A stretch of 64,000 bases of DNA. It comes from a virus. How positions within the stretch are numbered: the stretch's first letter is position 1; each line of letters opens with the position of its first letter. Both the position numbers and the translations under genes were made by a program. Shown here one piece after another: positions 1-33,232 of the stretch. The notes beneath the pieces are model-generated. The model did not search any database. It worked only from the letters and a program-made list of their open reading frames with translations, and was not told the DNA's origin. Location: IMG/VR virus record IMGVR_UViG_3300045988_168112. One strand, 5' to 3'.

Positions 1-3000
1 CAGAATAATTGTTAAAATATTTATACTGGTCGCTTATTGCATTATTACTATAATATAAATCTGATGAAGTGAATGTCCAAGCATCATTAACTGAATAATA
101 TCTTCTTACTTGAGTTGCAGTCCAACATATTACAGCATCAATTACATAATGTATATATGTAATTACGGGAAGTTTAGTGCTATCAAAATTATATACGGGA
201 TGACTTATTGACACACCAAGATATTTTGTCATTGCATTTGTACTTACATAAATTGAACTATTATTATACCATAAATTAGTTTCATCTTTTTTATATAATT
301 TAGCTATATAATATGTTTCAAATGAACTACCCGACAAATAAACAGAACGTCCTAATGTATAGCTTTTTGTACCAGTAGTTACGAAAAATACAATACCAAA
401 AGAATTACTAACAGCATATAACTTACTTTCTTCACTCGCTAAATTCACAATACCCGTATAAGCACCTTTAAATGGTTTATAATAATTATCTATATATGAA
501 TAATATTGTTCCACTCTTCTATTGCTCACCCACACCCCTACCTTTAGAGCCTCTATTGTTATGGACTGGTCTTTGATGAGGGAGATTGCAGTGGTGGAAC
601 GGTTCGGATAATTCCAGTCTCCTGTTCCGTTTCCTCCCCATGTCGTGCTTCCTCCTGCTTCCCACCAGTAGTTGCCCGGCTTTATTGTCAGTACCACCTG
701 TCCGCTCGTATTTGTAGTGCCGCTATATGCAGTGCTGGTATTGTTACTTGACAGCTTCACTATTACACCACTTCCTACACTTGTTCCTGTACTCGCGTCC
801 TTTACGGTTATCGTTATCGTCACCTCACTTGGTACCAGCTTGATTGTAAAATTAGAGGTGTTCGTGTTCGTCGTGTTCAGTGTCACGTATCTTGTCGCAC
901 TTACCACGTATCTCATTGTTGTTCCAGATACATATATAGTTGCTTGTCCAGAACTGTTCGTCGTTACAGTCTGCGTAGCATAATTATTAGAATCTGAACT
1001 ATCTCCATTAATACCATATACCTTTATTGTCGCACCACTTACAGCCGCATTTGTATAGCTATTCTGTACAGTCACTACAATACTCTTTATTGCAGTAGAA
1101 TAAAATGCTGTAGCGTCACTGTTATGTCCTATATTGCTAAAATTATAATTAGGGGTGATGTTGTATGTCGTTTCGGTCGTTGTTGTGCCAGTCACATAAT
1201 AACTTGCCTTGTATGCAGCTATATTTGTCGTTATACCTGCAATGAATGTATATGTTCCATAATAATATACCGTTTTAGCAGAATTTTGAGTGAGTGTGAC
1301 TGTTGTTGCCACTCCTGCTGTTGTAAATATAGGCTTCACTAATGTGTTTACTCTCCACCATCCTAATAAAGGAGTAGAAAGCGGCACCCTTATTCTGAAT
1401 ACAACTGCTACACTCTTCGTTAATCTTACAGCATTCTGTGTAGTTGTTGCTGTAGGCATTGTTATTGTCGTGCTTCCGTTTACCCAATAGCTTGTACCTC
1501 CACCCCATGATAATGTATATGAACCTGCTATCATAGGGCCGAATGACACTTGACCGCTACTATTCGTCGTTCCAGCAAACGTGACAGATGACAAACTCTT
1601 GTTCGTCAATGTAACCGGACATCCGTTCGCATTCCCTTTTACTGCATTCTGATAATAGTCCTTCATCGTTATTGTGATAGAAGAACTTGTCTCGCTCATT
1701 TTCAGATTAAGAGGACTTGCCTGCGTTGCCGATAATGTACCGGATAACGCATTGTAGTTCGTTTTTGAAAATGAATATCCTCTATTGATACCGCTTCTAT
1801 ATACAGTCCAATTACCACTACTATCCGTTGTCCCTGTCTGTCCTAAATAAGAACATGATACTCCGCTTATATTCGTTCCATAATTAGAACTCTTTATGTT
1901 GAATGTCAGACGTGCTGTTACATTCAGTGTCATAGTCCAGGATTGATTTTCAGATACCCATGTCCATTCCTGGCTTGCATTACTGTAATAACTTGCATTG
2001 TTTTTCGGTGTATAGGTGTAGTTTATTCCAGCATATACCGTATTTGTTTTCTTTCCGCTCGCATCCAACGTTATTTCTCCTGCCGGGGCATTCGAGCCTG
2101 TAGGTACACTTCTGACTATCACTGCACTACCTAACGGATGGGTTGCTGTGATGTTTGGAACTTTCTCAACGACTGTCAGTGTAACCGTTCTTGTCGTTCT
2201 GTTCATCGTCACTGTATAAGGTGATGTCTGTGTGGCAGTCACTGTTCCTACGTAGTTGTTGAAATACTGTGCCGTGGCGGTCATTTGTCTATCTAATCCA
2301 CTTCTGTAGAAGCTTCCTCCGGATGGAAGTGTTTGACCGAAATAGGTAATTGTTCCAGAAAGCGCATTACTTGTATTGTAAATATTTGCTACTGTATTAA
2401 TCACTATCTTTTGGTTGCAAATCAATTGTATTGTCCGCACTTGTCCTGCTGCCGTATAAGTCAGTGCAGTATTTGGATTACTGTAATAATTAGGTCTTGT
2501 TACTGGTGTGAATGTTACTGGTGTACCTAAATAACATACAAACGATACATTGCCGTTCGTATCTAACGTTAATGGGCTTGTAGAAGCTGCCGGACTGAAA
2601 TTCATCTTCATGGATGAATAAAGAGCTACAGTCCATCCAAACGTATTAGACGGAAATGCTTTTCTTGTTATTGTAACAGCATCAGTCGATTCATTATTAT
2701 ATACGTTAATATTATTACTTCCATTACTAAATAAGAAATCTTTATTTGCAGAAACCATTTTGTCTACAGTACATATTTGGGTTATTTCTGCATACGATTT
2801 ATTCTGCGAATTACTTCCACTGATATCAAATACTGATGCTGTATCTATCTGCCATGTAACTGGCTTACTTCCTCCATCTAAATTAAAGAAATTGGTTGTA
2901 CTGAAAGAACCAGAAGCACCACATCTTATATAATGAGCATACCAAGTCCATACACCTGTTCCTTTATTATCTGTAAGCCATCTTCTCGTTGCACTCCCAC

Positions 3001-6000
3001 CTGTTCCGGTTGCATTACTCTGAAAAAACAAACTATATCCAGTAGGAATTTTTGCATGGAAAAACACTACAAATTCCTTATTAGCTGCTGTTGGCGTACC
3101 AAAATAAAAACCTCCTAATCCCGGACTTGTTGCTCCGGTAGAAGTCTTTATTTCCAAAACATACTGTGATTTGAATAACACTTCTTCACTCACTCCAAGA
3201 CTTACTGTAGCAGTTGAACGCGTCATTACCGCGTTGAACGGAGACGCGGTATCTGATGTTATACTGCCTCTATAATTACCGTGATATGTTGCTGTAATAT
3301 CTACATTTCTGGTTACAGAACTTCTATATAACGATACGTTGCCACTACTATCCGTCGTTCCTGTCTGATGAAAATATGACACAGTAGCACCGCTCAAATT
3401 TGTTCCGCTTGGCACGTTCGACTTGACATTAATTGTTATTTTTGCCGTTACAGTCAAATCCATAGTCCATGACTGATTGGCGGCCGTATAGGTGTGTTTC
3501 TGTGTCGGATTGCTGTAGAATTCCGGATGTCCTACTACCGTAAACGTCATTTCCGTACCTATATATCCATTGAATGTCACTGCACCGCTTGCATTCGTTG
3601 TAAGTGTTCCGGTCGCACTTCCTGCTGTGTATTTTATCTGTAAGTTCTGATAATAAGTTGTCTGTGCTGGCGTTATTTCTCTTACTACAAGTGTAACCGG
3701 ATTAGCGGCACGTGTCATTACGATATTGAACGGTGAAGTAGAATCGAACCTTATCTGACCTGTATAAGATTCAAGATTTGCAGCACTCACCGATATATTA
3801 CGAGGGTCTGAACCGCTCCAGTAGAACACTGCGTTTCCGCTTGCATCCGTCGTTTTTGTCTGAGTAAAATAATTTACTGTTGCACCTTGAATGTTTTGCC
3901 CTGGTACATTATCTTTCACATTTACAGTTATCTGTTTCGCACAAGTGAGATTCATGTTCCATACTTCACCTGCCGTTGTAAATGTATGTGTTTGAGTTGG
4001 ATTACTATAAAATACCCTTCTATTTTCTGCAATTACTGCAAATGTAATCGGAATACCTAAATACGCCTCAAATGTATTTGTTCCGCTCGTAATCGTTCCA
4101 TTACCTGCTGCCGACGTGTAACTTAATGTAAAATTATACCCACCATCCAAAATTACACTTGCACCACCCGGTATCACTTCATATTGCTGTACTGTCACTA
4201 CATGCTTATTTCTTAGCATCGTAACATTAAGCGGTGAAGCTGTAGTAGGAGCAATGGTTCCGTTTACCGTGCTGTAATCCTCCTTGTCTAAAGAATAATC
4301 CTTTTCCAGTGCTGACCGGAACAATGAAGCGTTTCCGCTTGCATCCGTCGTCACCATCTGTTCGTTGTAAGTTACCGTTACTCCTTGGATATTGTTTTTC
4401 GCATATACATCCTTTACATTAACCGTTATCTTTGAGGTCACGTTCAAATCGAATGGCCATATCACACCATCTTCCGTCCATGTATAGGATTGTGTCGGAT
4501 TGCTGTAAAAGCTTGGGTATGAATCAGTCGTGAACGTGTATTCCAGATTTTTTATCAATAACTGGTTGGTATAACCGTTTTCATCCAAAGTCAGCTTTAT
4601 CGTTCCTGCCTTGGATGTCATTGTAATGGTCTGGTTTGACAGATAAGCTCTTCCTGCCGTACCGTACACCTCCGAAACCTGAATACCTGCATTAATCAAT
4701 TCATATTGCACTTCTACATCCAACACTGTACCACTTTCACTTTGGGGATGTGAGAACGTATCGGATGAAACCTCGCCTGCAAGAACCTCGTAGGTGTATT
4801 CTCCTACCGGAACATTCGGCATGACTATCGTTCCTTCCGTATTCGTCTCTCCCTCGAACACCATGTCCGGCAATACATTGTTTGTTACACGTACCAAAAT
4901 TCCATCCGGTGGTAAAACTCCCTGTGTTGATACATGGAAAGTAACTGGATATTCCTTTGCTTCCAATTCAATATCCATTCTTGTTTCTGTTCCGGTAGGT
5001 TTGAAATTCCCAGTCTTTGTGTTGTAATGCTGCTTGCTTACACTGTAAGACATATTTACTGGAGAAATGTACATTTGCACTATTCCATCCGTATTCGTCG
5101 TTCCTGTCTGATTGACGGACATCCCACTGAATGTTACTGATGCACCGCTTAACTCACCGTATAAATTAGAGGTGATATATACCGGAATTCTCTTCGAGCA
5201 TGTATATACAAGGTCTTTTGTTTTTGTGTCAGAATAATTTAACGTCGCTACGGCTCCGTTACCTTCGTAAAAAGTGACTGGCTGTATCTGGAAACGCTCT
5301 GCAATACCTGCATACACGGTTTTTACAAATCTTCCGTTTGCGTCCGTCGTTACATTATCACCGGATGATTCGCCATTATCATTGTAATAACATGCAAGAA
5401 TCATCCCGGCTTTTACCGGATTTGCTGTTGTCGTGGAAATAGAAGGTATTATTTCCTTTACCGTATAAGTGACTGAAATCGTTCTTCTTACTACCGTGGG
5501 GGAAATCGTATTGTTTACCGGAAGAACAATATCCCATGTTTTGTTATTAAAATTACTGTTTCCTCCTCCGAATGTGATATTATATCTTCCTGGGGGTATG
5601 TTGAACTGTCCGTTTCCTTTGGATGTAAATACACCATTTTCATTAGTTGTTCCGGTAAAACTATATGCTTGTGATGGTGTGCCGCCCCAATTACTCACGG
5701 CTGTTACTGGACAGTTTACTGCTACCGATTCATAAGGCTCCATGCTTTTTAGGTTTACGGTCATTGTTATTTCCGCATACCCCATGATTATGTCTATATA
5801 ATCGGCTGACAATGGAGGTGTAAACGTACCTGTCTTGTCCGTATGGTCTGCTACTGTACATTCATAGCTCATTGCAATAGGTGAGATGTACACGCTTGCC
5901 GAACCGTCACTTCCGGATGTCACTGTTTGAGGCAAAGACATTCCGGACACGGTTATTTCCGCACCTTCAAGCGGTCTTAACGTGTTCTGCTGTTTTACCC

Positions 6001-9000
6001 TTAATTCTACTTTCTTTGAACATGTGATTTCCATAAGCGTAGGTACACTCGCTCCGAAACCCCAATTCTTAATCAGTAAACCGTTGTTCTCATAGAAACC
6101 TTTCTCTTTTATTGTCAACTGATAATCAATACCCGGCATTACTTCCGGAAATATCTTTCCTGCCGCATTCGTCGTATATTCTCGTACATTATCGTTGAAC
6201 ATGTTCTTTACTGAAACAACAATTCCAGCCTTGACCGGATTGAAGTTCAGAGCGGCTTTCTGTTCGGCAGCTATCTTTACAGTTACCTGGCTTACCGGAG
6301 TCGTTATCGTCACATCCACATAGAAAGTTCTCGGCTGTGCATCACGTGTCACATTCGGCTGCACTGTCAACATCGTACCTTCCAAAGAAGCTATTTCGTC
6401 ATTTGACACGTTGAATACCAATTCTGCACCTCCGCTTGCAAAATCATATGGCTCGTCCTCACCGCCAATTTCTGCACGTCGAAAAGTTTTTACATGTTCC
6501 ATCAAATCAAACGTCACTCCTTTGTTAGGAACAACGAAGTTTTCCGGTGTATGAACTATGTAATAATAACTGTCATTAGATAACGTCTCAGTCGTATTTT
6601 CACCACTGAATCTTACTGTAGTAGCATCACCGGACACACCGGGAATATTCTCTATTACATCAACTTCCGGTTCGATTTCCCTTCTTGTCATAGTAAAAGG
6701 AAGGTCTATATCCTTCAATTTTTCAAGCGTTATCGACTGGTTTTCTACCGCATCATAATATCTGTGTGTCGCATTCCAAGTGTATTCCCCTGCTTCCGCT
6801 CCAAGCTGCAATACGCCTATATCATTCGTATAACCGGAATCCACTTTAATTCCGGTCCCCTTGTTTATCAATTCGATATATACACCGGAAATAGGAGTCT
6901 TCGTTATCGCGTCCGTTGCAGTGTATGTTATTACAGTATCTCTCAATTCAAGATAAATAGTTTCTACAACATCTTGGTCTTTAATTACAACTTGTCCAGT
7001 GTATCTTTTATAATTTCTTTGAGTAACTACATAATCATGAGTTCCATTACCAAGAGTTACAGTTGCTACACCATTTATATTTGTAATTTTTGTTTCTTCA
7101 TTGATATTCAATTCAGCACCTTGAATATAATTACCATTCTCGATATCACGAACAATTAGTTTTAATGTATAGAATGCCTTGTTTAATTTGATAATCTTAG
7201 ATATAGGTGCATCATCCACAACAATAAAGTCTGAATACGACATATAACCGCTTCTAAACACTGTATAAGTAAATGTACCGTTCGGTAAGCTTACAATAAC
7301 TACACCATGTTCGTCTGTTAGATATGTAGATTCGTTAATTGAAACTGTTGCATTAGGAATCACCATATCATTTTCTGAATCAAGAACAGTAAATTTAACC
7401 TCATAGGGAATAGCATCAAGCTCAACAAGAATACAATTCGGTTTTTCTCCTACTATATCAATTGTTTCGTTGTACTCTTGATATCCTTCTTTCATTACAC
7501 GCATCTCATATTGACCTACCTGAAGTCCCATTTGAGCTTGTCCTTCATTGTCAGTTCTTTGAGTTGTATTTGTAACTGTAATATCTGCTTGAGGTACATA
7601 AATACTTCTTCTTCTATCAATAACAGCGAAATTGACTGTCAATGATTCAAGAAACATTCTTTCAAAGATTTCTACTGGTTTATTTTCAACAGTCAAAACA
7701 CTTTCAATGGTTTTAAATCCAGCTTTTGATACTGTATAACTATATGTTCCAGGTTCTAAATCTACAGAAGCTATACCTGTATCATCAGTTTCAAGAGTAT
7801 TAATTCCAATCTTGATTTCTGCACCTTCCATAGGAGCTTCACCTTCGTATATCGTGAAAGTCACTTTATAAGGGGTTGCTTCAAAATTATTAATCGTTAT
7901 AAAAATTGGACCATTTAATACTACAAATTCACCAGTCTGTTGAATCCAGTTTGCTTTATTCAATGTATATGTATATTCACCATTTTCAAGTAATACGTTA
8001 GCAGTACCAGATTCATCTGTTGTAATAACTTTGTTCCCAATAGTAATAAACGCACCAGGAACTGCAACATTCTTCAATGTAGTTACAGTAAATGAAACAA
8101 GATATTTCTGAGAAAGAATTGCAGATTGTGAACCTTTATAAATATCACTCTCTCCTGCTGGATAAAAAATATTAGAAAGACTACTACCAGAATCATATAA
8201 AATGTTTCCTTCCAAGTCTCGCATTCTGAATCCTTTGATACGAGGTAACATATTCAAAGGAACTTCTTCGTCAAAGTAAGGAAAGAAATATTCATCCGGC
8301 ACATATTTCACACCTTCCGCAGTTTTAACGACTTGAAGTAAATCATCCCATTGTACAACTTTTCCTGCTTCCCAAAAACGGAAATCAAGATACTTCGTCA
8401 TAGCAATTTGGATATTCTTTCTTGCATCAGCAATATTTATATTAGGAGATAATTCAACACGGAAATCAATACCTTGTTCTCCTCCAACATACATCCATTT
8501 TGCATTTTCAAGAATAATACCTACTGATTCACCTGATAAATTTAATTCAGTTAAACCAAAATAAGGAGTAGCTTTTTCAAGTAATTCTTCAAGCTCATCA
8601 TCTGTAAAGAAAGAACCATTCTGAGTTACAAGATAAATATGAGTCTTTCCATCTTCACCTAATCCTACATTCATAACCTTCAGAATTCTATCATCAAGGT
8701 CTTGGAAAATCTGTGTCCAAGATTCCACTGTTTCTTCTGAAAGTCTGTTATTGTAATTTATAATTCTGTTTCTAAAAGTCTCGTCATCTTCATAATCACG
8801 TCCACCAATAGCTGCATATTCGTTAGTACATTCTATATGCGTCAATGGTCTTGGAGAAACTTGTGTAATACTATTAGCTTCTACATTCGTAGCAGAACCA
8901 GTGATTACACTTCTTACACTTACATATCCATAACCAGAATTATCAACTGTAAACGGTTTATCTACAACGAATCTGATACCATTCTTAGAAATAAAAGTTG

Positions 9001-9319
9001 TACCTACTTCATATAATGTTCCAGGTTCAGCATATACTCTTATATAAGTAGATGAGCCAAGAGCTTGTTTTCGAGGACTTACACCAAACAATGCTGCTGA
9101 TTTATCCAGATATGTACCAGTTGCAGATGTAGGAAATATCTGTGCTTCTACAATAGCAATATCTTTAATTGCTTTTTGAGCAACTTTTGCAGTACCAAAT
9201 GCAACTGCATTCAACACTGAACCATCTGCTATGTTAGAAACCTTATCTGTTTTGTTTAAAAACATTTCAATCCACAAATTCTTCAGATTTGCGATTGTGT
9301 TACTTACCTTTGTTATCAT
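1..9319 (-). CDS. Giant baseplate-J-like / tail-fibre fusion protein, truncated by the window edge (>3,106 codons visible)
   Basis: Hand translation of the minus strand from ATG 9319 (6 nt after the upstream TAA at 9326-9328) stays open down to nt 2 (9319 nt = 3106 codons + 1 nt). It is missing from the ORF track only because its stop lies left of the window. The N-terminal ~390 aa carry baseplate J/gp6-type strings (ATGTYLDKSAALFGVSPRK; ECTNEYAAIGGRDYEDDETFRNRI). The rest is tandem beta-sandwich repeats. Confidence 0.85.
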   Translation of the reverse strand, partial: MITKVSNTIANLKNLWIEMFLNKTDKVSNIADGSVLNAVAFGTAKVAQKAIKDIAIVEAQIFPTSATGTYLDKSAALFGVSPRKQALGSSTYIRVYAEPGTLYEVGTTFISKNGIRFVVDKPFTVDNSGYGYVSVRSVITGSATNVEANSITQVSPRPLTHIECTNEYAAIGGRDYEDDETFRNRIINYNNRLSEETVESWTQIFQDLDDRILKVMNVGLGEDGKTHIYLVTQNGSFFTDDELEELLEKATPYFGLTELNLSGESVGIILENAKWMYVGGEQGIDFRVELSPNINIADARKNIQIAMTKYLDFRFWEAGKVVQWDDLLQVVKTAEGVKYVPDEYFFPYFDEEVPLNMLPRIKGFRMRDLEGNILYDSGSSLSNIFYPAGESDIYKGSQSAILSQKYLVSFTVTTLKNVAVPGAFITIGNKVITTDESGTANVLLENGEYTYTLNKANWIQQTGEFVVLNGPIFITINNFEATPYKVTFTIYEGEAPMEGAEIKIGINTLETDDTGIASVDLEPGTYSYTVSKAGFKTIESVLTVENKPVEIFERMFLESLTVNFAVIDRRRSIYVPQADITVTNTTQRTDNEGQAQMGLQVGQYEMRVMKEGYQEYNETIDIVGEKPNCILVELDAIPYEVKFTVLDSENDMVIPNATVSINESTYLTDEHGVVIVSLPNGTFTYTVFRSGYMSYSDFIVVDDAPISKIIKLNKAFYTLKLIVRDIENGNYIQGAELNINEETKITNINGVATVTLGNGTHDYVVTQRNYKRYTGQVVIKDQDVVETIYLELRDTVITYTATDAITKTPISGVYIELINKGTGIKVDSGYTNDIGVLQLGAEAGEYTWNATHRYYDAVENQSITLEKLKDIDLPFTMTRREIEPEVDVIENIPGVSGDATTVRFSGENTTETLSNDSYYYIVHTPENFVVPNKGVTFDLMEHVKTFRRAEIGGEDEPYDFASGGAELVFNVSNDEIASLEGTMLTVQPNVTRDAQPRTFYVDVTITTPVSQVTVKIAAEQKAALNFNPVKAGIVVSVKNMFNDNVREYTTNAAGKIFPEVMPGIDYQLTIKEKGFYENNGLLIKNWGFGASVPTLMEITCSKKVELRVKQQNTLRPLEGAEITVSGMSLPQTVTSGSDGSASVYISPIAMSYECTVADHTDKTGTFTPPLSADYIDIIMGYAEITMTVNLKSMEPYESVAVNCPVTAVSNWGGTPSQAYSFTGTTNENGVFTSKGNGQFNIPPGRYNITFGGGNSNFNNKTWDIVLPVNNTISPTVVRRTISVTYTVKEIIPSISTTTANPVKAGMILACYYNDNGESSGDNVTTDANGRFVKTVYAGIAERFQIQPVTFYEGNGAVATLNYSDTKTKDLVYTCSKRIPVYITSNLYGELSGASVTFSGMSVNQTGTTNTDGIVQMYISPVNMSYSVSKQHYNTKTGNFKPTGTETRMDIELEAKEYPVTFHVSTQGVLPPDGILVRVTNNVLPDMVFEGETNTEGTIVMPNVPVGEYTYEVLAGEVSSDTFSHPQSESGTVLDVEVQYELINAGIQVSEVYGTAGRAYLSNQTITMTSKAGTIKLTLDENGYTNQLLIKNLEYTFTTDSYPSFYSNPTQSYTWTEDGVIWPFDLNVTSKITVNVKDVYAKNNIQGVTVTYNEQMVTTDASGNASLFRSALEKDYSLDKEDYSTVNGTIAPTTASPLNVTMLRNKHVVTVQQYEVIPGGASVILDGGYNFTLSYTSAAGNGTITSGTNTFEAYLGIPITFAVIAENRRVFYSNPTQTHTFTTAGEVWNMNLTCAKQITVNVKDNVPGQNIQGATVNYFTQTKTTDASGNAVFYWSGSDPRNISVSAANLESYTGQIRFDSTSPFNIVMTRAANPVTLVVREITPAQTTYYQNLQIKYTAGSATGTLTTNASGAVTFNGYIGTEMTFTVVGHPEFYSNPTQKHTYTAANQSWTMDLTVTAKITINVKSNVPSGTNLSGATVSYFHQTGTTDSSGNVSLYRSSVTRNVDITATYHGNYRGSITSDTASPFNAVMTRSTATVSLGVSEEVLFKSQYVLEIKTSTGATSPGLGGFYFGTPTAANKEFVVFFHAKIPTGYSLFFQSNATGTGGSATRRWLTDNKGTGVWTWYAHYIRCGASGSFSTTNFFNLDGGSKPVTWQIDTASVFDISGSNSQNKSYAEITQICTVDKMVSANKDFLFSNGSNNINVYNNESTDAVTITRKAFPSNTFGWTVALYSSMKMNFSPAASTSPLTLDTNGNVSFVCYLGTPVTFTPVTRPNYYSNPNTALTYTAAGQVRTIQLICNQKIVINTVANIYNTSNALSGTITYFGQTLPSGGSFYRSGLDRQMTATAQYFNNYVGTVTATQTSPYTVTMNRTTRTVTLTVVEKVPNITATHPLGSAVIVRSVPTGSNAPAGEITLDASGKKTNTVYAGINYTYTPKNNASYYSNASQEWTWVSENQSWTMTLNVTARLTFNIKSSNYGTNISGVSCSYLGQTGTTDSSGNWTVYRSGINRGYSFSKTNYNALSGTLSATQASPLNLKMSETSSSITITMKDYYQNAVKGNANGCPVTLTNKSLSSVTFAGTTNSSGQVSFGPMIAGSYTLSWGGGTSYWVNGSTTITMPTATTTQNAVRLTKSVAVVFRIRVPLSTPLLGWWRVNTLVKPIFTTAGVATTVTLTQNSAKTVYYYGTYTFIAGITTNIAAYKASYYVTGTTTTETTYNITPNYNFSNIGHNSDATAFYSTAIKSIVVTVQNSYTNAAVSGATIKVYGINGDSSDSNNYATQTVTTNSSGQATIYVSGTTMRYVVSATRYVTLNTTNTNTSNFTIKLVPSEVTITITVKDASTGTSVGSGVIVKLSSNNTSTAYSGTTNTSGQVVLTIKPGNYWWEAGGSTTWGGNGTGDWNYPNRSTTAISLIKDQSITIEALKVGVWVSNRRVEQYYSYIDNYYKPFKGAYTGIVNLASEESKLYAVSNSFGIVFFVTTGTKSYTLGRSVYLSGSSFETYYIAKLYKKDETNLWYNNSSIYVSTNAMTKYLGVSISHPVYNFDSTKLPVITYIHYVIDAVICWTATQVRRYYSVNDAWTFTSSDLYYSNNAISDQYKYFNNYS
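560..8150 (-). repeat. Tandem carboxypeptidase-regulatory-like / Ig-like beta-sandwich domains (>25 units) inside the giant fibre gene
   Basis: Recurrent ~80-90 aa units ending in T-[TD]-[DN]-x-x-G-x-[AV] ... G-x-Y-x-[YF]. Examples: TDESGTANVLLENGEYTYTL, TDDTGIASVDLEPGTYSYTV, TDNEGQAQMGLQVGQYEMRV, TDEHGVVIVSLPNGTFTYTV, TTDASGNASLF, TTNSSGQVSFGPMIAGSYTL. Confidence 0.7.
3337..4354 (-). repeat. ~165-166 codon super-repeat of the fibre (FYSNPTQ..T..W.M.LT..KITVNVK..TTDASGN), three best-conserved copies
   Basis: Exact 23-nt identity gcgtttccgcttgcatccgtcgt at 3831-3853 and 4329-4351 (offset 498 nt). A diverged copy ends at 3358 (offset 495 nt). Further YYSNP/TTDSSGN copies occur near 1810-1830 and 2000-2500. 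Confidence 0.7.
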
Positions 9320-9325
9320 AACATG

Positions 9326-10228
9326 TTATATTGGAACATTAATTAAAAAATCTTCTTTTGTCACTGTAGTAGCTCTTACTTTCATAAAGATACTATCCTC
9401 AACCTTCTTCAAGTCAATCAATTCAGCACTCGCCCAACGATTATCTCTTTGGAACATATTCATCAATGATTTAAATATAATCGGATATTGAATCGCATTT
9501 GTAGTCTGACCAATAAAATCAGAAGGAAGGCCGTAATCAGTAAATTCAGGAATACAACCTTTAACTGCTTCAAGAATAATCTGAAGAGCTTGTTCCATAG
9601 ATTTTTGGAATTTAATAATCTTCAAATCTTCATTCTCAAATACAAATTCAATCGATAAATCCTTACCAAGAATATTCTCATTCACTAAGGTATCAACCAC
9701 ATTATCAACATAATTAATACCTACATTCTTTAAATTCACAGAAAAAGTATTACTACCATGACCAGTAACATAATCTTCTTCAATTATATATTGAGGTACA
9801 ACTATATCTACCCAATCATCTTCAGGATTTTCCAATTCAAGTTGTTCAGATACAGTTTCAAATGTCTCACCAGTTCTTAATTGTTTTTCTAATTGCAAGG
9901 TATTTGTTCTTCCTACAGAAGCACTTCTTAACCATCTATCAGAATTCTTTATAGTTGTCAACTTTGTAACAATTTCAGAAAAATTTTCAAGAAGTTCCCA
10001 CATAGAAATATCGTCCAACTTATTCTCATGTAATTGAAATAATGGTTCAACAATATTAATCTGTGCAATTAATTTGTCTAACTCATAAAAAGAATCTGCA
10101 TTAATCTCCCCACCCTGATAATAATCCACAATATAAGGATAATATTCAGAGCAAAAATCAACGTAGGATTGAAAGAAATCTTTTATATTGTATCCTGTAA
10201 CTGAAAGAAACTTTTCGTACATATCCAT
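9326..10228 (-). CDS. Baseplate wedge protein with C-terminal gp25/GpW-like region (tentative)
   Basis: ORF track. Sits immediately upstream of the J-like gene. The C-terminal ~100 aa (ILEAVKGCIPEFTDYGLPSDFIG...FQRDNRW) resemble the GPW/gp25 pattern. Confidence 0.45.
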   Translation of the reverse strand: MDMYEKFLSVTGYNIKDFFQSYVDFCSEYYPYIVDYYQGGEINADSFYELDKLIAQINIVEPLFQLHENKLDDISMWELLENFSEIVTKLTTIKNSDRWLRSASVGRTNTLQLEKQLRTGETFETVSEQLELENPEDDWVDIVVPQYIIEEDYVTGHGSNTFSVNLKNVGINYVDNVVDTLVNENILGKDLSIEFVFENEDLKIIKFQKSMEQALQIILEAVKGCIPEFTDYGLPSDFIGQTTNAIQYPIIFKSLMNMFQRDNRWASAELIDLKKVEDSIFMKVRATTVTKEDFLINVPI

Positions 10229-10230
10229 AG

Positions 10231-11007
10231 CTACAAAATATTAGCGATTGTCGCAGCGAGGTCATTAACTCCTTTTTGAATTGCACCTGCTGCACAAATT
10301 TTTGTCAAAGCTGTTTTTGCTTTTTTAGCTCCTGCTACAGATTCTAAAGGGGCAATCGCAGTCATTGATAAATTATAATCCCATATCATATTCCTTTGAA
10401 TATTTTGAGAAAAAGATAGTCCTGCTGGTGGTATTACAACTAAATAACTCTCACCTAAAGCCATATTATAGAAGTATAATCTCAATGGTAAACCCAATTG
10501 GTCTACTCCATTACTTTTTGAAATTATAGCTTGCAATATTTTTATACATCCATATCCAGTTTTAATACCAGCATCAAAAGATGCAGATTTTAAGCTATTA
10601 GTACTTTTTCCAGAAATATCTGTCAACGACCATTTACCTGCCGACATACTATAAGCTGCACCCGTCAAACTACTCGCAGCTCCTCCTAACGATAATAAAA
10701 TTTTAAAAGTCCTACCGAAATCTCCTCTAATGTTTATTTGTTGAGGAGTAAAAGTCGGTGAACTCAATACAGTTATTCCACCTGCAGTATTCCTTATCGT
10801 TTCTCTCTTAGGTTCAGTTTTAGTTATACTATTTGGATTAATAGGAAAAGTGAAAAAGTCAATTGTGTTATTCTGAGAATCAGCTAATTCAAGTGTACAA
10901 AGATATACCTCAAAATCATTTGGAAATTGAGATGCTAACACTGCTCGTCCTGCAGTTTCAATAATCCCTGATGCTTTTTGAATTGCTGATTGTGCTAAAC
11001 TTGCCAT
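10231..11007 (-). CDS. Baseplate / tail-tip structural protein, function unassigned
   Basis: ORF track. Lies between the spike-like and wedge-like genes. The FFTFPINPNS...INIRGDFG pattern is reminiscent of tube-initiator/baseplate proteins. Confidence 0.4.
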   Translation of the reverse strand: MASLAQSAIQKASGIIETAGRAVLASQFPNDFEVYLCTLELADSQNNTIDFFTFPINPNSITKTEPKRETIRNTAGGITVLSSPTFTPQQINIRGDFGRTFKILLSLGGAASSLTGAAYSMSAGKWSLTDISGKSTNSLKSASFDAGIKTGYGCIKILQAIISKSNGVDQLGLPLRLYFYNMALGESYLVVIPPAGLSFSQNIQRNMIWDYNLSMTAIAPLESVAGAKKAKTALTKICAAGAIQKGVNDLAATIANIL

Positions 11008-11026
11008 ATAATACTTTTCTTTATCG

Positions 11027-11058
11027 CCTAAAGATACGAATTATTTCATTAATCTGAA
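11027..11058 (-). promoter_or_regulatory. Candidate promoter (-7 TATCTTTAG; weak -33)
   Basis: Coding strand reads AATTCGTATCTTTAGGCG, 20 nt before ATG 11007. The -33 position reads TTTC rather than TTG. Confidence 0.35.
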
Positions 11059-12095
11059 AAAGTTACCGTGCTTTTTATACCATCAAATTGTAATGGATTT
11101 ACTGCTGCTACTGCACCTACACCTGCACCAAATCCGGCTTTACCTCCATCCATCGCTGCCGAACCTGCAAGTGCTGTTTGCCATGCGTTCTTTAGCGTCA
11201 TTATCTGATTTTCCACATTATTCAACATTTGAATAAGTGTATTTGCTAATGTCAATGGTTCTTTAGCACCATTTATTTCTACTTTTTGTCCGGTTATGAG
11301 TTTAATTAAATTTCGAGTTAACTGAACTTGTTCTTCATCATTGTTGAAACCAATTATCAAATTACCATCATCTATCGTTATATGTTCCTGTTTATCATGT
11401 AAATTGATATCTATTTGATTGTCATCTATCAATAAATGTGTTTCTTTTTGATTTGTTCTTCTATACAAATCAAATTTTTCCATATCAAAAACTATCTTTC
11501 GAACTTCTTCACCTGGACTTTCAACTTCTTTTTTGACATTGACTATCTCAGCTTCTATTGATTTGTATCCTGTGACTTTAACTTTTTCAGATGCTTTAAG
11601 TTCAATTTCTCCTGAAGATTGTAATCGAATTTTATGCTCTACATTTCCACCCATAGTGATATTCAAATTAATCGGTTTAGCTTTACCGACTAAATTCAAA
11701 TTCCACTCTCTATTAATTGGGTCCATACAAAACAACATGTCTGTATCTTCAGATGTCTTTCTAAATCTTTGAATTTCTTCTGACCAAGCAAATATTTCAT
11801 CATTACCTTGTAGAGTTCCAATTATTATTGGTTGGTTTCTGAATGCACCTGATGCTATTACAACTTGAGTTCCTTTTTCACCTGGCTCTTCAGGAAATTG
11901 AATATTTTGTATAGCTTCATTTGTAATATAGACATCAGTCTTAAAAAGACCTCCTTCTACAAGAACACAAACTTTGTTCGTTCTGTAACATGTTTCTATA
12001 TAAGAATCTCTATCTATTTGAGTGGGAATCATTATATAACCAGTTGTCACTGGTCCCAAATCATTATATTGAAATTTAGGTTTATTTCCAGCCAT
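11049..12095 (-). CDS. Central spike / baseplate assembly protein V-like (tentative)
   Basis: ORF track. N-terminal OB-fold-like region (VCVLVEGG...PIIIGTLQGNDE), a repetitive beta-strand middle and a Gly/Ala-rich C-terminus. Lies between the hub-like gene and the baseplate genes. Confidence 0.45.
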   Translation of the reverse strand: MAGNKPKFQYNDLGPVTTGYIMIPTQIDRDSYIETCYRTNKVCVLVEGGLFKTDVYITNEAIQNIQFPEEPGEKGTQVVIASGAFRNQPIIIGTLQGNDEIFAWSEEIQRFRKTSEDTDMLFCMDPINREWNLNLVGKAKPINLNITMGGNVEHKIRLQSSGEIELKASEKVKVTGYKSIEAEIVNVKKEVESPGEEVRKIVFDMEKFDLYRRTNQKETHLLIDDNQIDINLHDKQEHITIDDGNLIIGFNNDEEQVQLTRNLIKLITGQKVEINGAKEPLTLANTLIQMLNNVENQIMTLKNAWQTALAGSAAMDGGKAGFGAGVGAVAAVNPLQFDGIKSTVTFSD

Positions 12096-18344: not shown

Positions 18345-19988
18345 TTATCCACGAATTAGATATCCAGTAAAGAACAACTTCGTGATTTCGTTATTTACCA
18401 CAATCTTATAAGTAGTGAAATAAGCATCATCTTTACGAGTTGTTACTACATCCTGGAATGACAACAATAAATTGTCTTGCTCACTTGTAGCTGTTCTCGA
18501 TTGTAAATAAGCTACTGTCCAATCTTTAACAGCACCTGCTGACAGAGTATTGGCATTCACACCGTTTTCTTGACCAAGAAGGTCGAGTGTTGCATTTACA
18601 ATCAATTCTTTATTAATCTGCGCTACAACACGCATGAACTGAATAGAGTAAGATTGACCTTTTGCATTGAACAGATTGGCGTTATCTTGCAATGTATTTA
18701 CACCCTGCAAAATATTGAACTTTCCAGTATAGTCGTTCAATACAACACAAAGAATACCATACTTCAAAGCTTTTTTCTTTTCAGTCTCAGTCAATATATG
18801 TTTTACTCTATCAACACCAATTGTCTTGAATGTAGGAGGTACATAAGGCGGTTTTCCGCTTACACGGCCCACTACTGCACAAGTCATGTAAATAGCCGGC
18901 CACCAACGAATCTTCTGTGCATCAAATGCAGATACCATACCTACACCACCATGTACCAATTGAATATAACAACTATCGAAAGCTTGAGCTAATGTGATTT
19001 CTTGTGCAAAATTAGCTGAATCATCATAACCTGCTACATACAAGAAGTGTTGGAATTTAGCATCTTGTGTCATATGAGTGATATATGCTTTTGTAGTTGC
19101 TGAATTTGCATTCGCTCCTACTTGGTCAAGTATCACTGCACTATAATCCAAACCTACAATCTGGTCAAGAACAGCATTTAAATCGTTCATATCAAACGAT
19201 TCAGTACCACCAGTAGCAAGGATATAAGGTTTACCGTTCAATGCAGTAGTAATATCATTCTGCTCAATCTTACCAGTACCTTCAACCTGAGAAGTGGAAT
19301 CAAGAACAAATACCAAACCAAAATTAGAATCATTATTGGCCCAATCAATCAATTCTTGAATGTTATCAATTTCAGGAGATTCGAGTACTAATTCAGGGTC
19401 ACAATTTTCTTGCGTAATGTCACCATAAGGCAAACCATCTGTATAAGTACCAGTATAAGTACCTCTCCAGAATTGCAGAATCCATTTAGTAGCATCTTCA
19501 CGTCCTGCGATAAAACTCAGACCGTAGCCTTTTGTCAATAATTCATCGTTCAACAACGAACCATTGGCTACTAAACCTTCATCTAATGTTTTAACTGCGA
19601 ATGTACCTCCTGCTGCTGTTGCAAATGTAATTTTTGCTCCTGTAGTTGTTGCTGCACGAACAAATTCAAGTTCAGAAATACCTACTGCGTCAGGATTCGA
19701 AGAGTCTGGTGCGAATAACGCTTCTGCAGCTCTCCACCACATTCCACCTTTCATAAATCCACGAAAATCTGAAAGATTGTCAAATGTATAAATAGCATTC
19801 TGACCTTGTGTATTTTCACCATTAATACCAGCACCACCACCAAATCCAGCAGAATATGTACCAGTATCAATAACAAGAACCTTACCGTAATCTAAATTAC
19901 GAGCAGGTCCAGTTTCTCCACTTATAATGGTGCTGTAAACACCAGGAAGAGATATTTGACGATTGTTAAAATAAAATGTGCTTGACAT
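18345..19988 (-). CDS. Contractile tail sheath protein
   Basis: 547 aa. The N-terminal ISLPGVYSTIISG string matches the sheath PGVY motif. Size and position upstream of the tube gene fit. Confidence 0.75.
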   Translation of the reverse strand: MSSTFYFNNRQISLPGVYSTIISGETGPARNLDYGKVLVIDTGTYSAGFGGGAGINGENTQGQNAIYTFDNLSDFRGFMKGGMWWRAAEALFAPDSSNPDAVGISELEFVRAATTTGAKITFATAAGGTFAVKTLDEGLVANGSLLNDELLTKGYGLSFIAGREDATKWILQFWRGTYTGTYTDGLPYGDITQENCDPELVLESPEIDNIQELIDWANNDSNFGLVFVLDSTSQVEGTGKIEQNDITTALNGKPYILATGGTESFDMNDLNAVLDQIVGLDYSAVILDQVGANANSATTKAYITHMTQDAKFQHFLYVAGYDDSANFAQEITLAQAFDSCYIQLVHGGVGMVSAFDAQKIRWWPAIYMTCAVVGRVSGKPPYVPPTFKTIGVDRVKHILTETEKKKALKYGILCVVLNDYTGKFNILQGVNTLQDNANLFNAKGQSYSIQFMRVVAQINKELIVNATLDLLGQENGVNANTLSAGAVKDWTVAYLQSRTATSEQDNLLLSFQDVVTTRKDDAYFTTYKIVVNNEITKLFFTGYLIRG

Positions 19989-31372: not shown

Positions 31373-33232
31373 TTAATGTAACTGCAAACGATACTTCGTC
31401 TGTTTGAGTGTTGCCATAAAATCTTCAACCCAAGACTTTTCACCTGCATAATTTTGCTTGTCTTCGAGTTTAGAATAGAATTCTTTTGTCCTATCAATAA
31501 TCAGATTGATAAGTCCTATCGGGTCATCAACTTCAATTTCTTCACCGTTGATTTCACCTTCTTTGAATCGTCCGAATTCTGACTGTCCTGCTTCCATTAT
31601 CTTATCTTCATAATCTGAAAGTTCCTCTATCAAATCATCGAGATATTGATGTTTAGCATTATCTTCTTCACTCCAATGGATATTCTTTGATTTCGTCTTC
31701 ACGCCTTCAATGAAATTAGCAAAATCAGCAAACACTCTGTACATCTCATCTTTTGCTTTTAGAATCTCAGAACCATCATCTAAAGAAACGTTACTGTTTA
31801 TCTCTTTACGAATATCATCTATACCCCAAGATTTCTCTATTTCTTCATCAGAAACAAGAATCTTGTTTATATCGAGTTTTCCTTCGTTTTTCATCTCATT
31901 CAGTAAAGATTTGAACATATCAGCTTGGTCGAGGTCATTGAAGTCAATTAACATTCTAAAACCTGTTGGTTCTTCAGTTTCAATCTCAATAGATTTTTCT
32001 ATACCATCACCTTCAGGTTCTTTTGTTTCTTTATCTAAATCTTCTTTACATAAAGCATTAACACTATTACAATCTATAGTCTTTTCAACATTCTCTTTTT
32101 CTTTCCAATCCTCAGGAAGTTCATTCTCAAGACCCAGCTCTTTAGCACGTTTCTTAATCCATGCTTTCACCTTTTCTTTCGGCATATCAGAAGCGCCGGA
32201 CAACTTAATAGCATCTTTCAAATCCTGACTATTCCTTATAGGATATTTCCCGTTCGGCATTGCCTCGCCTTTCTTTGCAAGGTCTTTTCTTTCTGTATGT
32301 GAAAAATAGGTTTTATTATTTGCCTTTTTGATATCTTCTGGACATGATTTACAAACATCGCCGAAGACTTTTTCTGAAATATCACCATTCAAAAATGACT
32401 TCATAATCTTCAAGACTTTATTTTCAGATACTTCAAGTCCTAAAATTCGTTTGATATTATCTTTCATATCAAAAATGAAATCATAATCATCTAACTCTGT
32501 AGATGGATTAATCCAAGCAGAACCAATTTCTTCTTCACTATCAAGCAACAATGAAGCTGGAGCTTCACTATCAATATGACCTATAAAATAATGAATTTCA
32601 AAATCTTTACCTGTCGCGATTCCAACTGGATAAAGCAAATCTTCAGGAACATCTAATCCAGTCTCTTCAAATAATTCTCTATGAGCTGCTTCACGCCATT
32701 CTTCTCCTGCATCTACATGACCTCCAGGAATACACCATTCAGTAGTACTTTCACCCATATCACCAACTCTCTGTAGGATAAGAAGTTTGTCCCCTCTAAA
32801 TAAAAGCACATCTGCATATTTCACTTTACCAATCTTCGCTTTGATAATGTCATTGTAAATAGACTTTGAAATTACACCAGATTTACACAATCCTTTAGCT
32901 TCAAAGAGGTCTTTCATATCTACAAGTGCTTCTGCAATTTCAGTATCATCTTCTAATAATTTTATAGACTTTTCTATAGAAGTCTTTTCTTTTTGGATAC
33001 TTGCAACATGTTTCGTATGTTCCTTCAAAAAAGAATCGTATCTTTTCAAAGCATCTTCTTTCTCTTCTGCATCTAAAGTGGAGATACTTTTAATAATACT
33101 ATTCTGTTGTGCAAACTCATCTGCAAGATTATCTATCTCTTTATTGATATCTTGAGATTTTTGAAGAAGTTTTCTGTACTGATTGATTTTTTCTTCTTTT
33201 GAACGAAAACCAAATAATTTCTTTATATTCAT
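31373..33232 (-). CDS. Multidomain protein: coiled coil, Nudix hydrolase, C-terminal Dps/ferritin-like region (tentative)
   Basis: Perfect Nudix box GHVDAGEEWREAAHRELFEETGL (G-x5-E-x7-REUxEExGU). The C-terminal KNIHWSEEDNAKHQYLDDLIEELSDYEDKIMEAGQSEFG...GEKSWVEDFMATLKQTKYRL resembles Dps helices. Confidence 0.7.
   Translation of the reverse strand: MNIKKLFGFRSKEEKINQYRKLLQKSQDINKEIDNLADEFAQQNSIIKSISTLDAEEKEDALKRYDSFLKEHTKHVASIQKEKTSIEKSIKLLEDDTEIAEALVDMKDLFEAKGLCKSGVISKSIYNDIIKAKIGKVKYADVLLFRGDKLLILQRVGDMGESTTEWCIPGGHVDAGEEWREAAHRELFEETGLDVPEDLLYPVGIATGKDFEIHYFIGHIDSEAPASLLLDSEEEIGSAWINPSTELDDYDFIFDMKDNIKRILGLEVSENKVLKIMKSFLNGDISEKVFGDVCKSCPEDIKKANNKTYFSHTERKDLAKKGEAMPNGKYPIRNSQDLKDAIKLSGASDMPKEKVKAWIKKRAKELGLENELPEDWKEKENVEKTIDCNSVNALCKEDLDKETKEPEGDGIEKSIEIETEEPTGFRMLIDFNDLDQADMFKSLLNEMKNEGKLDINKILVSDEEIEKSWGIDDIRKEINSNVSLDDGSEILKAKDEMYRVFADFANFIEGVKTKSKNIHWSEEDNAKHQYLDDLIEELSDYEDKIMEAGQSEFGRFKEGEINGEEIEVDDPIGLINLIIDRTKEFYSKLEDKQNYAGEKSWVEDFMATLKQTKYRLQLH

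Follow-up and report, generated by a model that had tools for sequence, protein, structure and literature searches.

The first 9.3 kb of the stretch of phage DNA analysed here (64,000 nucleotides, hereafter the window) raise two questions: whether a baseplate protein and a very long tail fibre can be parts of a single polypeptide, and how such a fibre ends. The parent genome is that of an uncultured gut phage (circular, ~105 kb), with ORFs tiled across the whole genome for the scans described below. A first, sequence-only reading had proposed a giant minus-strand ORF whose stop lies beyond the left edge of the window, and both points hold. Translation of the minus strand from position 9319 to position 2 gives 3,106 codons with no in-frame stop. 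At this base composition the probability of a stop is 0.073 per codon, which puts the chance of such a run at ~1e-102; the remaining two minus-strand frames contain 246 and 290 stops, and the longest stop-free run in shuffled sequence is 151 codons. Two codons ahead of the ATG at 9319 there is an in-frame TAA, which makes this start unambiguous. Near-identical contigs show the ORF running on for 944 nt beyond window position 1 before its stop. Products called in complete contigs are 3,409-3,417 aa long (e.g., P0156), and the whole gene is estimated at ~3,410-3,420 codons, the first 3,106 of which lie within the window. The ORF is missing from the ORF listing because its frame runs off the left window edge.

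Domain organisation of the giant gene

The N-terminal region had been taken for a baseplate J/gp6-like wedge protein, and sequence and structure comparisons agree on this identity. The module matches Pfam Baseplate_J (PF04865; E 1.3e-16, 61.1 bits against a cut-off of 21.1) and PHROG_6, 'baseplate wedge subunit' (2.4e-28), and has PDB sequence matches to Mu gp47 (1.6e-5), diffocin TRI-2 (3.3e-5), and phiCD508 gp65. When a structure model of moderate confidence (pLDDT 65) was compared with the PDB by Foldseek, every match from rank 1 to rank 46 was a baseplate component, from contractile phage tails, tailocins or contractile injection systems, among them those of A-1(L), phiCD508, Mu, phi812, AFP, T4 gp6 and pyocin R2, with a best E-value of 2e-15 and ~360-410 columns aligned for J proteins of ~350-390 aa. 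The module is collinear with the entire stand-alone 390-aa J of sister phages, and stand-alone homologues cover 97% of the query. Directly upstream of the giant gene lie genes for a baseplate protein and a tail-tube initiator, and the sheath gene lies 9 kb upstream (Table 1); the 300-aa and 348-aa upstream proteins have no PDB sequence match. The sheath, major capsid protein and portal found in its genome identify the phage as a myovirus. Three solved baseplates (9ki1, 8v3w, and 9g8s) contain 12 chains of the J-type subunit per entry. By analogy, the J::fibre protein would be present at ~12 copies per baseplate, probably as single chains or pairs rather than as classical trimers.

The fibre body is made largely of beta-sandwich modules related to the CarboxypepD_reg family (PF13620; 136 bits, E 5e-40). 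Iterated HMMs derived from the protein itself recovered 24 modules plus 2 probable ones, which makes an earlier count of more than 25 CarboxypepD_reg/Ig-like modules about right. The single non-repeat insert of the same account has to be replaced by two. Insert 2 has neither a Pfam nor a PDB sequence match, and its alleles fall into two classes, ~70% and 93-98% identical to the window. The twelve-module region is mosaic from strain to strain (69-98% identity). The last module before the tip ends within an inverted repeat.

Table 1. Features of the giant gene and its surroundings, in window coordinates.
Feature	Position	Strand	Basis or remark
Giant J::fibre gene	2..9319	-	Stop-free translation, statistics, upstream in-frame stop, related contigs
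Tip cassette 'A', first 175 aa (aa 2932-3106), currently fused	2..527	-	Continuation in L016, L017, L018
Right arm of 78-nt inverted repeat	528..605	.	Inside giant gene; encodes NRSTTAISLIKDQSITIEALKVGVWV (aa 2906-2931)
Seven to eight more beta-sandwich modules, aa 2212-~2905	606..2686	-	
Non-repeat insert 2, aa 2042-2211	2687..3196	-	Repeat-HMM gap
Twelve beta-sandwich modules, two alternating subtypes (~80 aa, ~90 aa), aa 1007-2041	3197..6301	-	
Non-repeat insert 1, aa 887-1006	6302..6661	-	Gap in both repeat HMMs, no Pfam match
Six tandem CarboxypepD_reg-like beta-sandwich modules, aa 408-886	6662..8098	-	Pfam, iterated HMM on own protein
12-aa linker from J to first module	8099-8134	-	
Baseplate J / gp6-type wedge module, aa 1-395	8135..9319	-	Pfam, PHROG, PDB sequence, Foldseek
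Upstream baseplate genes: 300-aa baseplate protein and 258-aa tail-tube initiator	9326..11007	-	PHROG_975, PHROG_1011, Pfam Phage_tail_tube_init
Tail sheath	18345-19988		PHROG_279, 3.5e-23

The fusion among related phages

Stand-alone J/gp6 proteins of known systems (Mu gp47, P2 gpJ, diffocin TRI-2, phiCD508 gp65, T4 gp6, and Afp11/Pvc11) resemble residues 1-395 in sequence and fold, and their genes occupy the same position, in the baseplate module beside the tube initiator. Phage versions measure ~300-660 aa, those of contractile injection systems up to ~1,100 aa. Systems with a stand-alone J use separate trimeric fibres, attached through a gpI/gp7-like adaptor, whereas here the fibre is a covalent C-terminal extension of J. 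More than 40 contigs preserve the junction. A query spanning it, run against a representative library, found the same junction in 13 clusters at 50% identity from public metagenomes, with lengths of 1,151-3,417 aa, and the GenBank contig MT835500 carries a complete version of 2,696 aa. J is a stand-alone protein of ~390-400 aa both in sister phages, where it is ~60% identical, and in cultured Bacteroides and Chryseobacterium relatives; the fusion point is the natural C-terminus of these stand-alone proteins. The fusion is lineage-specific. The view that a fused wedge and fibre is very unusual stands in that a full-length J is fused within one gene in a particular lineage, but the architecture is not a one-off, being shared by 13 clusters.

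Megablast of window positions 1-12000 and tblastn of the tip cassette both gave zero matches against GenBank phages, and hence no phage deposited there carries this locus; in the nearest isolates, the major capsid and J proteins are only 32-40% identical. The lineage is common, as the gene neighbouring the giant gene is present in 247 data blocks of a public collection. The Gut Phage Biobank paper reports genes of up to 10 kb in gut phages of >80 kb, which may include relatives. In the literature searched, no description was found of a J::fibre fusion or of a tip switch based on a 78-nt repeat. Just downstream of the giant gene lies a gene for a second fibre (1,822 aa), which is ancestral. Because of this second fibre the giant gene is not the sole candidate receptor binder: it remains a strong candidate for the host-range determinant, with a competitor beside it.

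The segment at the fibre tip

The end of the gene within the window had been described as a Tyr/Asn-rich tip. Tyr is indeed enriched (14.3%), as is Ser (13.1%), but Asn is not (8.0% against 8.1% in the body). Nor is it the plain end of a fibre: what the window holds is the start of one of two invertible cassettes. Cassette A is ~490 aa long as a whole, and its homologues occur only as ORFs of ~481-497 aa on contigs of 103-107 kb. It has no PDB sequence match. Foldseek of an AF2 model of moderate confidence (pTM 0.70, pLDDT 63) returned 6-7-bladed propellers at TM-scores of only 0.3-0.39, the best matches being glycosidase, sialidase and lyase propellers. On the basis of this model the cassette is predicted to be beta-propeller-like. 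The tips may bind, or cleave, glycans on the surface of a Bacteroidota host.

The window contains one exact copy of the 78-nt repeat, where none is expected by chance; the partner (left) arm lies ~3.0 kb downstream of it, off the window. In L016 and L017 the paired arms are 98-99% identical and ~2,960 nt apart. Both arms are present in all 37 loci with enough flank, with exactly two arms per genome, and relatives without the giant gene have no such inverted repeats. The segment between the arms holds two convergent tip cassettes of ~490 aa with a hairpin between them, such that each half consists of one ORF followed by the hairpin. This hairpin, found by eye and by folding (loop >8 nt), is present in 36 of 36 loci at -17 to -36 kcal/mol. 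In every one of the 37 loci both cassettes share the reading frame of the repeat, and the silent cassette (506-524 codons) is intact in all but one. The only start codons open to the antisense cassette ORF lie inside the repeat, and a scan for sigma-70 promoters around the segment stayed at chance level. In L016, the alternative cassette is fused as one continuous ORF.

Both orientations occur among the assembled genomes. The flanks are swapped in L017 relative to L016 and L018, the segment itself being 92-96% identical. In L057 and L045 the segments are 99.84% identical and yet inverted, with downstream flanks that are 99.5% identical. Six contigs whose upstream gene is identical diverge from the window sequence exactly at the repeat arm. 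Across 37 related genomes there are 16 cassette types in 22 pairings, 6 of them found in both orientations; T1, for example, is the fused cassette in 6 loci and the silent one in 8. The variants are whole-domain alleles rather than adenine-site variants, and a diversity-generating retroelement was rejected on this ground and because the Pfam scan of the tiled genome gave no RVT family. A shufflon (Rci) was rejected given exactly two arms per genome and no Phage_integrase family match. Contigs broken at the repeat (L009, L033, L040, L048, and L056) were considered as a sign of mixed orientations and discarded as such, since a repeat longer than k breaks the de Bruijn graph regardless and such ends are expected with or without flipping.

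As a whole, the locus is best explained, with good probability, by a single J-anchored polypeptide fibre with an invertible, exchangeable tip. One polypeptide would comprise a J/gp6 wedge N-terminus of ~395 aa and a beads-on-a-string fibre of ~3,000 aa, the latter made of ~26 transthyretin-like (CarboxypepD_reg) modules, two unique inserts and a beta-propeller-like tip of ~490 aa, and the fibre would be built into the baseplate rather than docked onto it. The ~3.0-kb segment between the 78-nt inverted repeats, one arm of which is intragenic, carries the two convergent cassettes and a bidirectional terminator-like hairpin, and its inversion would bring the other cassette in frame behind a constant body of ~2,930 aa. 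A phage population would then hold two receptor specificities; between strains, at least 16 cassette types are reshuffled. The segment may flip within populations at a useful rate.

Inversion, alternatives and implications

Judged by its anatomy, the tip switch would be like the G segment of Mu. As in that segment (Gin), the C segment of P1/P7 (Cin), the P segment of e14 (Pin) and Min of p15B, inverted repeats, of which one is intragenic, flank a segment of ~3 kb, and a constant N-terminal part is joined by inversion to either of two opposed C-terminal parts; alternative host specificities result from those switches. The present phage differs in having no recognisable serine invertase gene, adjacent or elsewhere in the genome, and no co-inverted chaperone gene (U/U'). 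Its repeats are 78 nt long against 34 bp in Mu and crossover sites of 26-34 bp in the Gin/Cin/Pin/Hin class. Here 2,930 aa of J-fused fibre make up the constant part, the phage appears to be a virulent ~105-kb myovirus of Bacteroidota type, and 37 genomes yield a very large pool of at least 16 cassette types. In the haloarchaeal phages phiCh1 and phiH1 (int1), inversion between repeats in two convergent fibre genes likewise swaps C-termini, but there a phage tyrosine recombinase is encoded between the genes and the repeats are clusters of short ones. In the Anabaena cyanophages A-1(L), Elbi and others, a ~30-kb segment inverts between repeats, with both isomers found among close relatives, and a possible inversion without a dedicated recombinase is discussed (bioRxiv 10.64898/2026.02.14.705889). 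Those repeats are 400-700 nt long and surround a 30-kb block of whole genes, with no splice within a coding sequence and no tie to a receptor tip. In bacteria, inverted repeats that reach into the 3' portion of a specificity gene, with silent alternative 3' cassettes nearby, have been described, and the enriched targets of such programmed inversions include prophage tail fibres (Milman et al., NAR 2023; PMC9881135). Recombinase genes are enriched beside the loci of that study, which are prophage-borne or chromosomal, and a J-fused giant fibre is not described there.

The catalyst of inversion was sought in the phage genome. Among ORFs of >=80-100 aa, tiled over the complete circular genome, Pfam searches detected neither Resolvase nor Phage_integrase families, and in particular no Resolvase match within 10 kb of the segment; six-frame tblastn with Gin, Hin and XerD gave no match. 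The phage does encode RecA (match 1.2e-74). Since the genome contains no recognisable invertase gene, RecA-type recombination is preferred, and our preferred guess is homologous recombination over the 78-nt repeats by phage RecA-based machinery. Homogenisation of the arms and the length of the repeat support homologous recombination indirectly. In 23 of 35 genomes the two arms have the same sequence, and at 7 polymorphic sites (positions 14-71) they match in 91-97% of genomes, where independence predicts 50-75%. By these sequence comparisons the two arms evolve in concert.

The same switch might instead be operated by a site-specific invertase at a short core site inside the repeat, either host-encoded or an unrecognised phage protein. 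This is a possible reading, somewhat short of an even chance. Absence of an invertase gene may only mean that the enzyme is host-encoded or of an unrecognised family, and many phage ORFs carry no family assignment. To our knowledge, the well-studied fibre switches all use a dedicated recombinase (Mu Gin, P1 Cin, e14 Pin, p15B Min, and the phiCh1 integrase), and Bacteroidota carry many serine and tyrosine invertases. The repeat has very sharp borders and is more strongly conserved from strain to strain (91-97% identity) than the adjoining body (75-85%). An invertase of the phage's own is opposed by the empty family and tblastn searches, and a fixed crossover would leave the outer halves of the arms unhomogenised, yet the polymorphisms at 14-71 co-vary between arms. 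Reliance on a host invertase would, moreover, be unusual for a lytic phage.

It is improbable that the fusion exists at the DNA level only, with a polyprotein cleaved or its translation interrupted to yield an ordinary J and a separate fibre. The stand-alone J of sister phages does end exactly at the junction, and the 12-aa linker that follows is of low confidence. No stop, frameshift or protease motif is evident, however, the junction is in frame across 13 divergent clusters, and the fibre body lacks a separate N-terminal domain for attachment. Least probable of all is that there is no programmed switching, only assembly errors or rare old rearrangements and an antisense cassette that is an independent gene or a spare copy that serves only exchange between strains: the orientation calls do all come from short-read assemblies, in which assemblers with k <78 can mis-orient the repeat, contig ends at the repeat do not discriminate, and gene callers list the antisense cassette as a separate ~490-aa ORF, but that cassette is in frame and nearly always intact, it can start only within the repeat, cassette types occupy either slot, with the 6 two-way pairings on contigs of >100 kb from different assemblies, and the arms co-vary.

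Returning to the J-anchored fibre with an invertible tip, one gene would combine a structural anchor (J), a reach on the ~100 nm scale and a swappable tip, each genome offering two tips out of at least 16 in the population. Covalent fusion of a fibre to a wedge subunit predicted at 12 copies calls into question the common view of adaptor-docked trimeric fibres. More tentatively, an abundant virulent lineage of gut myoviruses may switch tips without a dedicated invertase, using the repeats as substrates of the phage's own RecA-based recombination, with both tip variants of a baseplate-integral, probably non-trimeric 3,400-aa fibre present in every burst. As the lineage is common, the prediction is directly testable in existing long-read gut metagenomes. 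If flipping is truly invertase-free, pipelines that seek recombinases beside inverted repeats would systematically miss such switches. The conserved 78-nt repeat would also be a ready landing pad for receptor-binding tip swaps in engineered phages. Phase variation of capsules and surface proteins lets Bacteroidota escape phages, and the host range of the gut virome is largely a black box. The locus suggests a phage strategy that matches this phase variation; if true, a RecA-driven tip switch would be the phage counterpart to the phase-variable capsules of Bacteroidota.

The giant gene and its modules

The minus strand is open from ATG 9319 down to nt 2, as the sequence-only reading had claimed, and its 3,106 codons contain no in-frame stop. 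Local composition predicts one stop per ~14 codons, and the chance of such a run is ~1e-102; the remaining two minus-strand frames hold 246 and 290 stops, and the longest stop-free run in shuffled sequence is 151 codons at most. The start at 9319 is the only one possible because an in-frame TAA, the end of the preceding gene, lies two codons upstream. The ORF listing of the region shows short ORFs alone, because ORFs running off an end are left out. In IMG/VR contigs matching the first 40 nt of the window, the frame continues for 944 nt past position 1, so that the stop does lie beyond the left edge, and on contigs of 102-107 kb the gene is called at 3,409-3,417 aa (the retrieved protein P0156 is the full 3,417-aa sequence).

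Residues 1 to ~395 are a whole baseplate J protein, joined end-to-end to a fibre (see the table). This is concluded from profile and structure matches and from stand-alone homologues that finish where the repeats start. The Pfam Baseplate_J profile matches residues 68-192 (61 bits vs a cut-off of 21) and PHROG_6, "baseplate wedge subunit," residues 16-194; the closest solved proteins by sequence are Mu gp47, diffocin TRI-2 (CD1371) and phiCD508 gp65. An AlphaFold2 model of residues 1-480 was built from 22 homologues and is of moderate confidence (pLDDT 65). Its best 46 PDB matches in Foldseek are all baseplate components of contractile phage tails, tailocins or contractile injection systems, including A-1(L), phiCD508, Mu, phi812, Milano, AFP, T4 gp6 and pyocin R2, with a best E-value of 2e-15 and ~360-410 columns aligned for J proteins of ~350-390 aa. 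The hundreds of stand-alone homologues (~60% identity, 390-400 aa, 97% query coverage) stop at the point where this protein enters its repeats. The J module is a genuine PF04865 member, and the earlier assignment of the N-terminal ~390 aa to the J/gp6 type is borne out.

Features of the giant protein, with window positions where reported
Feature	Residues	Window	Evidence
J module	1-395		Pfam, PHROG, PDB sequence matches, Foldseek
Linker	396-407
Six modules	408-886
Insert 1	887-1006
Twelve modules	1007-2041
Insert 2	2042-2211	2687-3196 (minus)
Seven to eight modules	2212-~2905
Mosaic stretch (distal two thirds of body)	1200-2800	noted at 3197-6301 and 2687-3196 (minus)
Segment encoded by the inverted repeat	2906-2931	528-605 (arm)
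Tip cassette	2932 onward

The fibre body matches Pfam CarboxypepD_reg (E 5e-40). Iterated HMMs derived from the protein itself find 17 modules of one subtype; addition of a second, related subtype gives 24 distinct CarboxypepD_reg-like modules and 2 probable ones, where more than 25 had been proposed. The proposed non-repeat insert, tentatively labelled jelly-roll-like, is present, but as two inserts rather than one, neither of which has a match in Pfam or among PDB sequences. Among contigs with an identical upstream gene, residues 1-600 are ~100% conserved, the mosaic stretch varies at 69-98% identity, and insert 2 occurs in two discrete allele classes. Genomes >99% identical in the tip segment and downstream flank may differ by ~19% over the last 3 kb of the body.

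Spread of the fusion and the second fibre

A search of 1.84 billion representative proteins with a junction-spanning query (aa 200-640) gave thirteen clusters (50% identity; lengths 1,151-3,417 aa) whose alignments cross the junction at the same point; all remaining J matches are ~390-400 aa long, and all remaining module matches are unrelated repeat proteins. The GenBank contig MT835500 encodes a complete 2,696-aa fusion with a different C-terminus. The fusion is not a sequencing artefact. It had been called a very unusual architecture, which fits the sister clade, whose J stands alone, but not the 13 clusters with the same junction. Three more distant fusions (P0160, P0164 and P0168; 1,698-2,781 aa) carry lectin-like or peptidase-like inserts and share a conserved C-terminal domain (...GTEGDVMVY...RLAFRG...) that differs from the tip of this phage, so that several unrelated tip types occur on the fused-J architecture.

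Sister-clade phages carry, after J, genes for a holin, DUF5675, DUF6549, a fibre of 786-808 aa and a head-fibre-like protein. Directly downstream of the invertible segment, off the window, lies a second large fibre gene (1,822 aa; L051:10001-15469 on a related contig); its product has CarboxypepD_reg modules and gives weak matches to DUF285 and Head_fiber_dimeric. Homology of the first ~480 aa to the sister-phage fibre marks it as the ancestral fibre. The sister-phage fibre has no homology to the giant body; this lineage has thus added the J-linked fibre to an ancestral one.

The phage is contractile-tailed, since genes for a tail sheath, major capsid protein and portal lie in the window. No DNA-level match was found among GenBank phages. 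The nearest cultured relatives, Bacteroides thetaiotaomicron DAC16-group myoviruses and a Chryseobacterium phage, reach only 32-40% protein identity, and two unannotated human-faecal contigs are closer. The exact sequence of the upstream 300-aa protein recurs in 247 data blocks, many on 102-107 kb contigs. In the head-gene block, a 619-aa protein (window 31373-33232, minus) has a NUDIX hydrolase domain and, in its C-terminal region, a match to the PHROG "starvation-inducible transcriptional regulator." Window ORFs in 20817-64000 collectively match ADP-ribosylglycohydrolase (4e-24), PNK3P polynucleotide kinase-phosphatase, PBECR1 nuclease, Rho_N and BACON, a Bacteroidetes-associated carbohydrate-binding domain. 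Inteins (Intein_splicing, Hint, LAGLIDADG), whose presence differs from strain to strain, occur in the DnaE polymerase, in the UvrD helicase of some strains and in the large terminase of the sister clade (L124:13171-18632, L153:3467-5815, L010:20019-21173).

The inverted repeat and the tip cassettes

Comparison of contigs extending the window revealed an inverted repeat that had escaped the sequence-only reading, with one arm inside the giant ORF and the arms ~2,960 nt apart. First seen as 84-85 nt and 98-99% complementary, it has nucleotide-sharp borders and an actual length of 78 nt, and codes for the final strands of the last module. Such repeats are absent from relatives without the giant gene and from MT835500. 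In contigs L017 and L051 the order along the gene is body, repeat, cassette A (sense), hairpin, cassette B (antisense), repeat, a conserved 88-nt spacer and the 1,822-aa fibre gene. L016 keeps the absolute orientation of the segment and has the two flanks swapped, with cassette B and the body forming one continuous ORF; cassette A is likewise unfused in L018 and L058. The spacer between the convergent cassettes forms a 10-19-bp hairpin (-17 to -36 kcal/mol) in 36/36 loci, built from three or more unrelated sequences, consistent with a bidirectional terminator.

We fetched 53 IMG/VR loci through the downstream fibre gene, 37 of which contain both arms. All 37 have both cassettes sharing one frame with respect to the repeat, and 36 have an intact silent cassette (506-524 codons); the exception, L061 (IMGVR_UViG_3300045988_116192), has a truncated frame of 95 codons, which may stem from an error in sequencing or from decay of the cassette. 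Grouped at 80% identity, these loci hold 16 cassette types in 22 pairings, six of them seen in both orientations. One type can fill either slot (T1 is the fused cassette in 6 loci and the silent one in 8). The segments of L057 and L045 are 99.84% identical yet inverted, with downstream flanks 99.5% identical, and all six contigs with an identical upstream gene part from the window exactly at the inner repeat end or stop there. Every orientation was read from assemblies, several made by MEGAHIT at k = 119-141, longer than the repeat, while others may lean on paired-end resolution. From these assembled genomes we infer that the segment probably flips within phage populations.

Cassette homologues form 35 clusters without a Pfam domain, confined to 103-107 kb contigs of this lineage and always present as ORFs of ~481-497 aa; these are silent cassettes as seen by gene callers. 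The AlphaFold2 cassette model (32 homologues) is all-beta and of moderate confidence (pLDDT 63, pTM 0.70; residues 180-440 mostly 75-90). Its best PDB matches are 6-7-bladed propellers at TM-scores of only 0.3-0.39, namely GH93 arabinofuranosidase (3e-6), sialidases NanH and Neu2, and PL24/PL25 lyases; a viral structure library returned generic propellers only. As far as the model goes, the tip appears beta-propeller-like, and it possibly binds or cleaves glycans.

The proposed inversion and virion

The circular genome was tiled whole from the window, L051 (10 kb past the second fibre), L124 and L155 to an NAD-dependent ligase, and L151, which opens with the same ligase and rejoins the window at its right end. 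Among its ORFs of at least 80-100 aa there is no serine or tyrosine recombinase, transposase or reverse transcriptase match at E <= 1e-3, and six-frame tblastn with approximate Gin, Hin and XerD queries found nothing. The phage encodes RecA (1.2e-74), a Metallophos nuclease, split DnaE with an intein, a DnaB-like helicase, primase, ligase, UvrD, an SNF2 helicase and RNase H. RecA adjoins the nuclease and a 666-aa ATPase-like protein (L155:12227-16208), a pair that looks SbcCD-like, suggesting that this integrase-free genome has a recombination system of its own.

In 23 of 35 genomes the two arms match exactly; between genomes they vary at about 4-6 positions. At seven polymorphic sites (positions 14-71) the arms of one genome agree in 91-97%, vs 50-75% expected under independent evolution, and leftover mismatches are scattered along the repeat. 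The two arms thus evolve in concert along the entire repeat, which requires repeated recombination or gene conversion between them. Phage recombination systems work on ~50 bp homologies, so a 78-nt perfect repeat is a plausible substrate. This and the arm homogenisation make homology-driven flipping our preferred, if tentative, reading. Flipping by a host invertase or an unrecognised invertase is a close second, only somewhat less likely; a single fixed crossover point fails to account for arms homogenised along their full length. Functionally the locus resembles the Mu G and P1 C segments. That family, however, has an adjacent serine invertase, short crossover sites and a co-inverted assembly gene, none of which is present here, and with two defining features missing we do not count the locus as a member. 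We found no account of the fusion or of this tip switch in the literature.

Solved J proteins contribute 12 chains per baseplate entry. If that count holds here, a virion would carry ~12 fibres, each of ~26 beta-sandwich beads, perhaps roughly 100 nm long, with a propeller at the end. Since 12 copies do not fit six trimers, the fibres are probably monomeric or paired, resembling bacterial repeat adhesins more than classical fibres. Alternatively, J and the fibre may be separated by cleavage. Inversion would swap the propeller and inter-strain recombination the cassettes and body modules, the 1,822-aa fibre remaining constant. In Bacteroidota hosts, phase variation of the capsule also changes sensitivity to phages (Porter et al., 2020, as cited in PMC9881135). 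A two-state tip would be a phage bet-hedge matching capsule phase variation.
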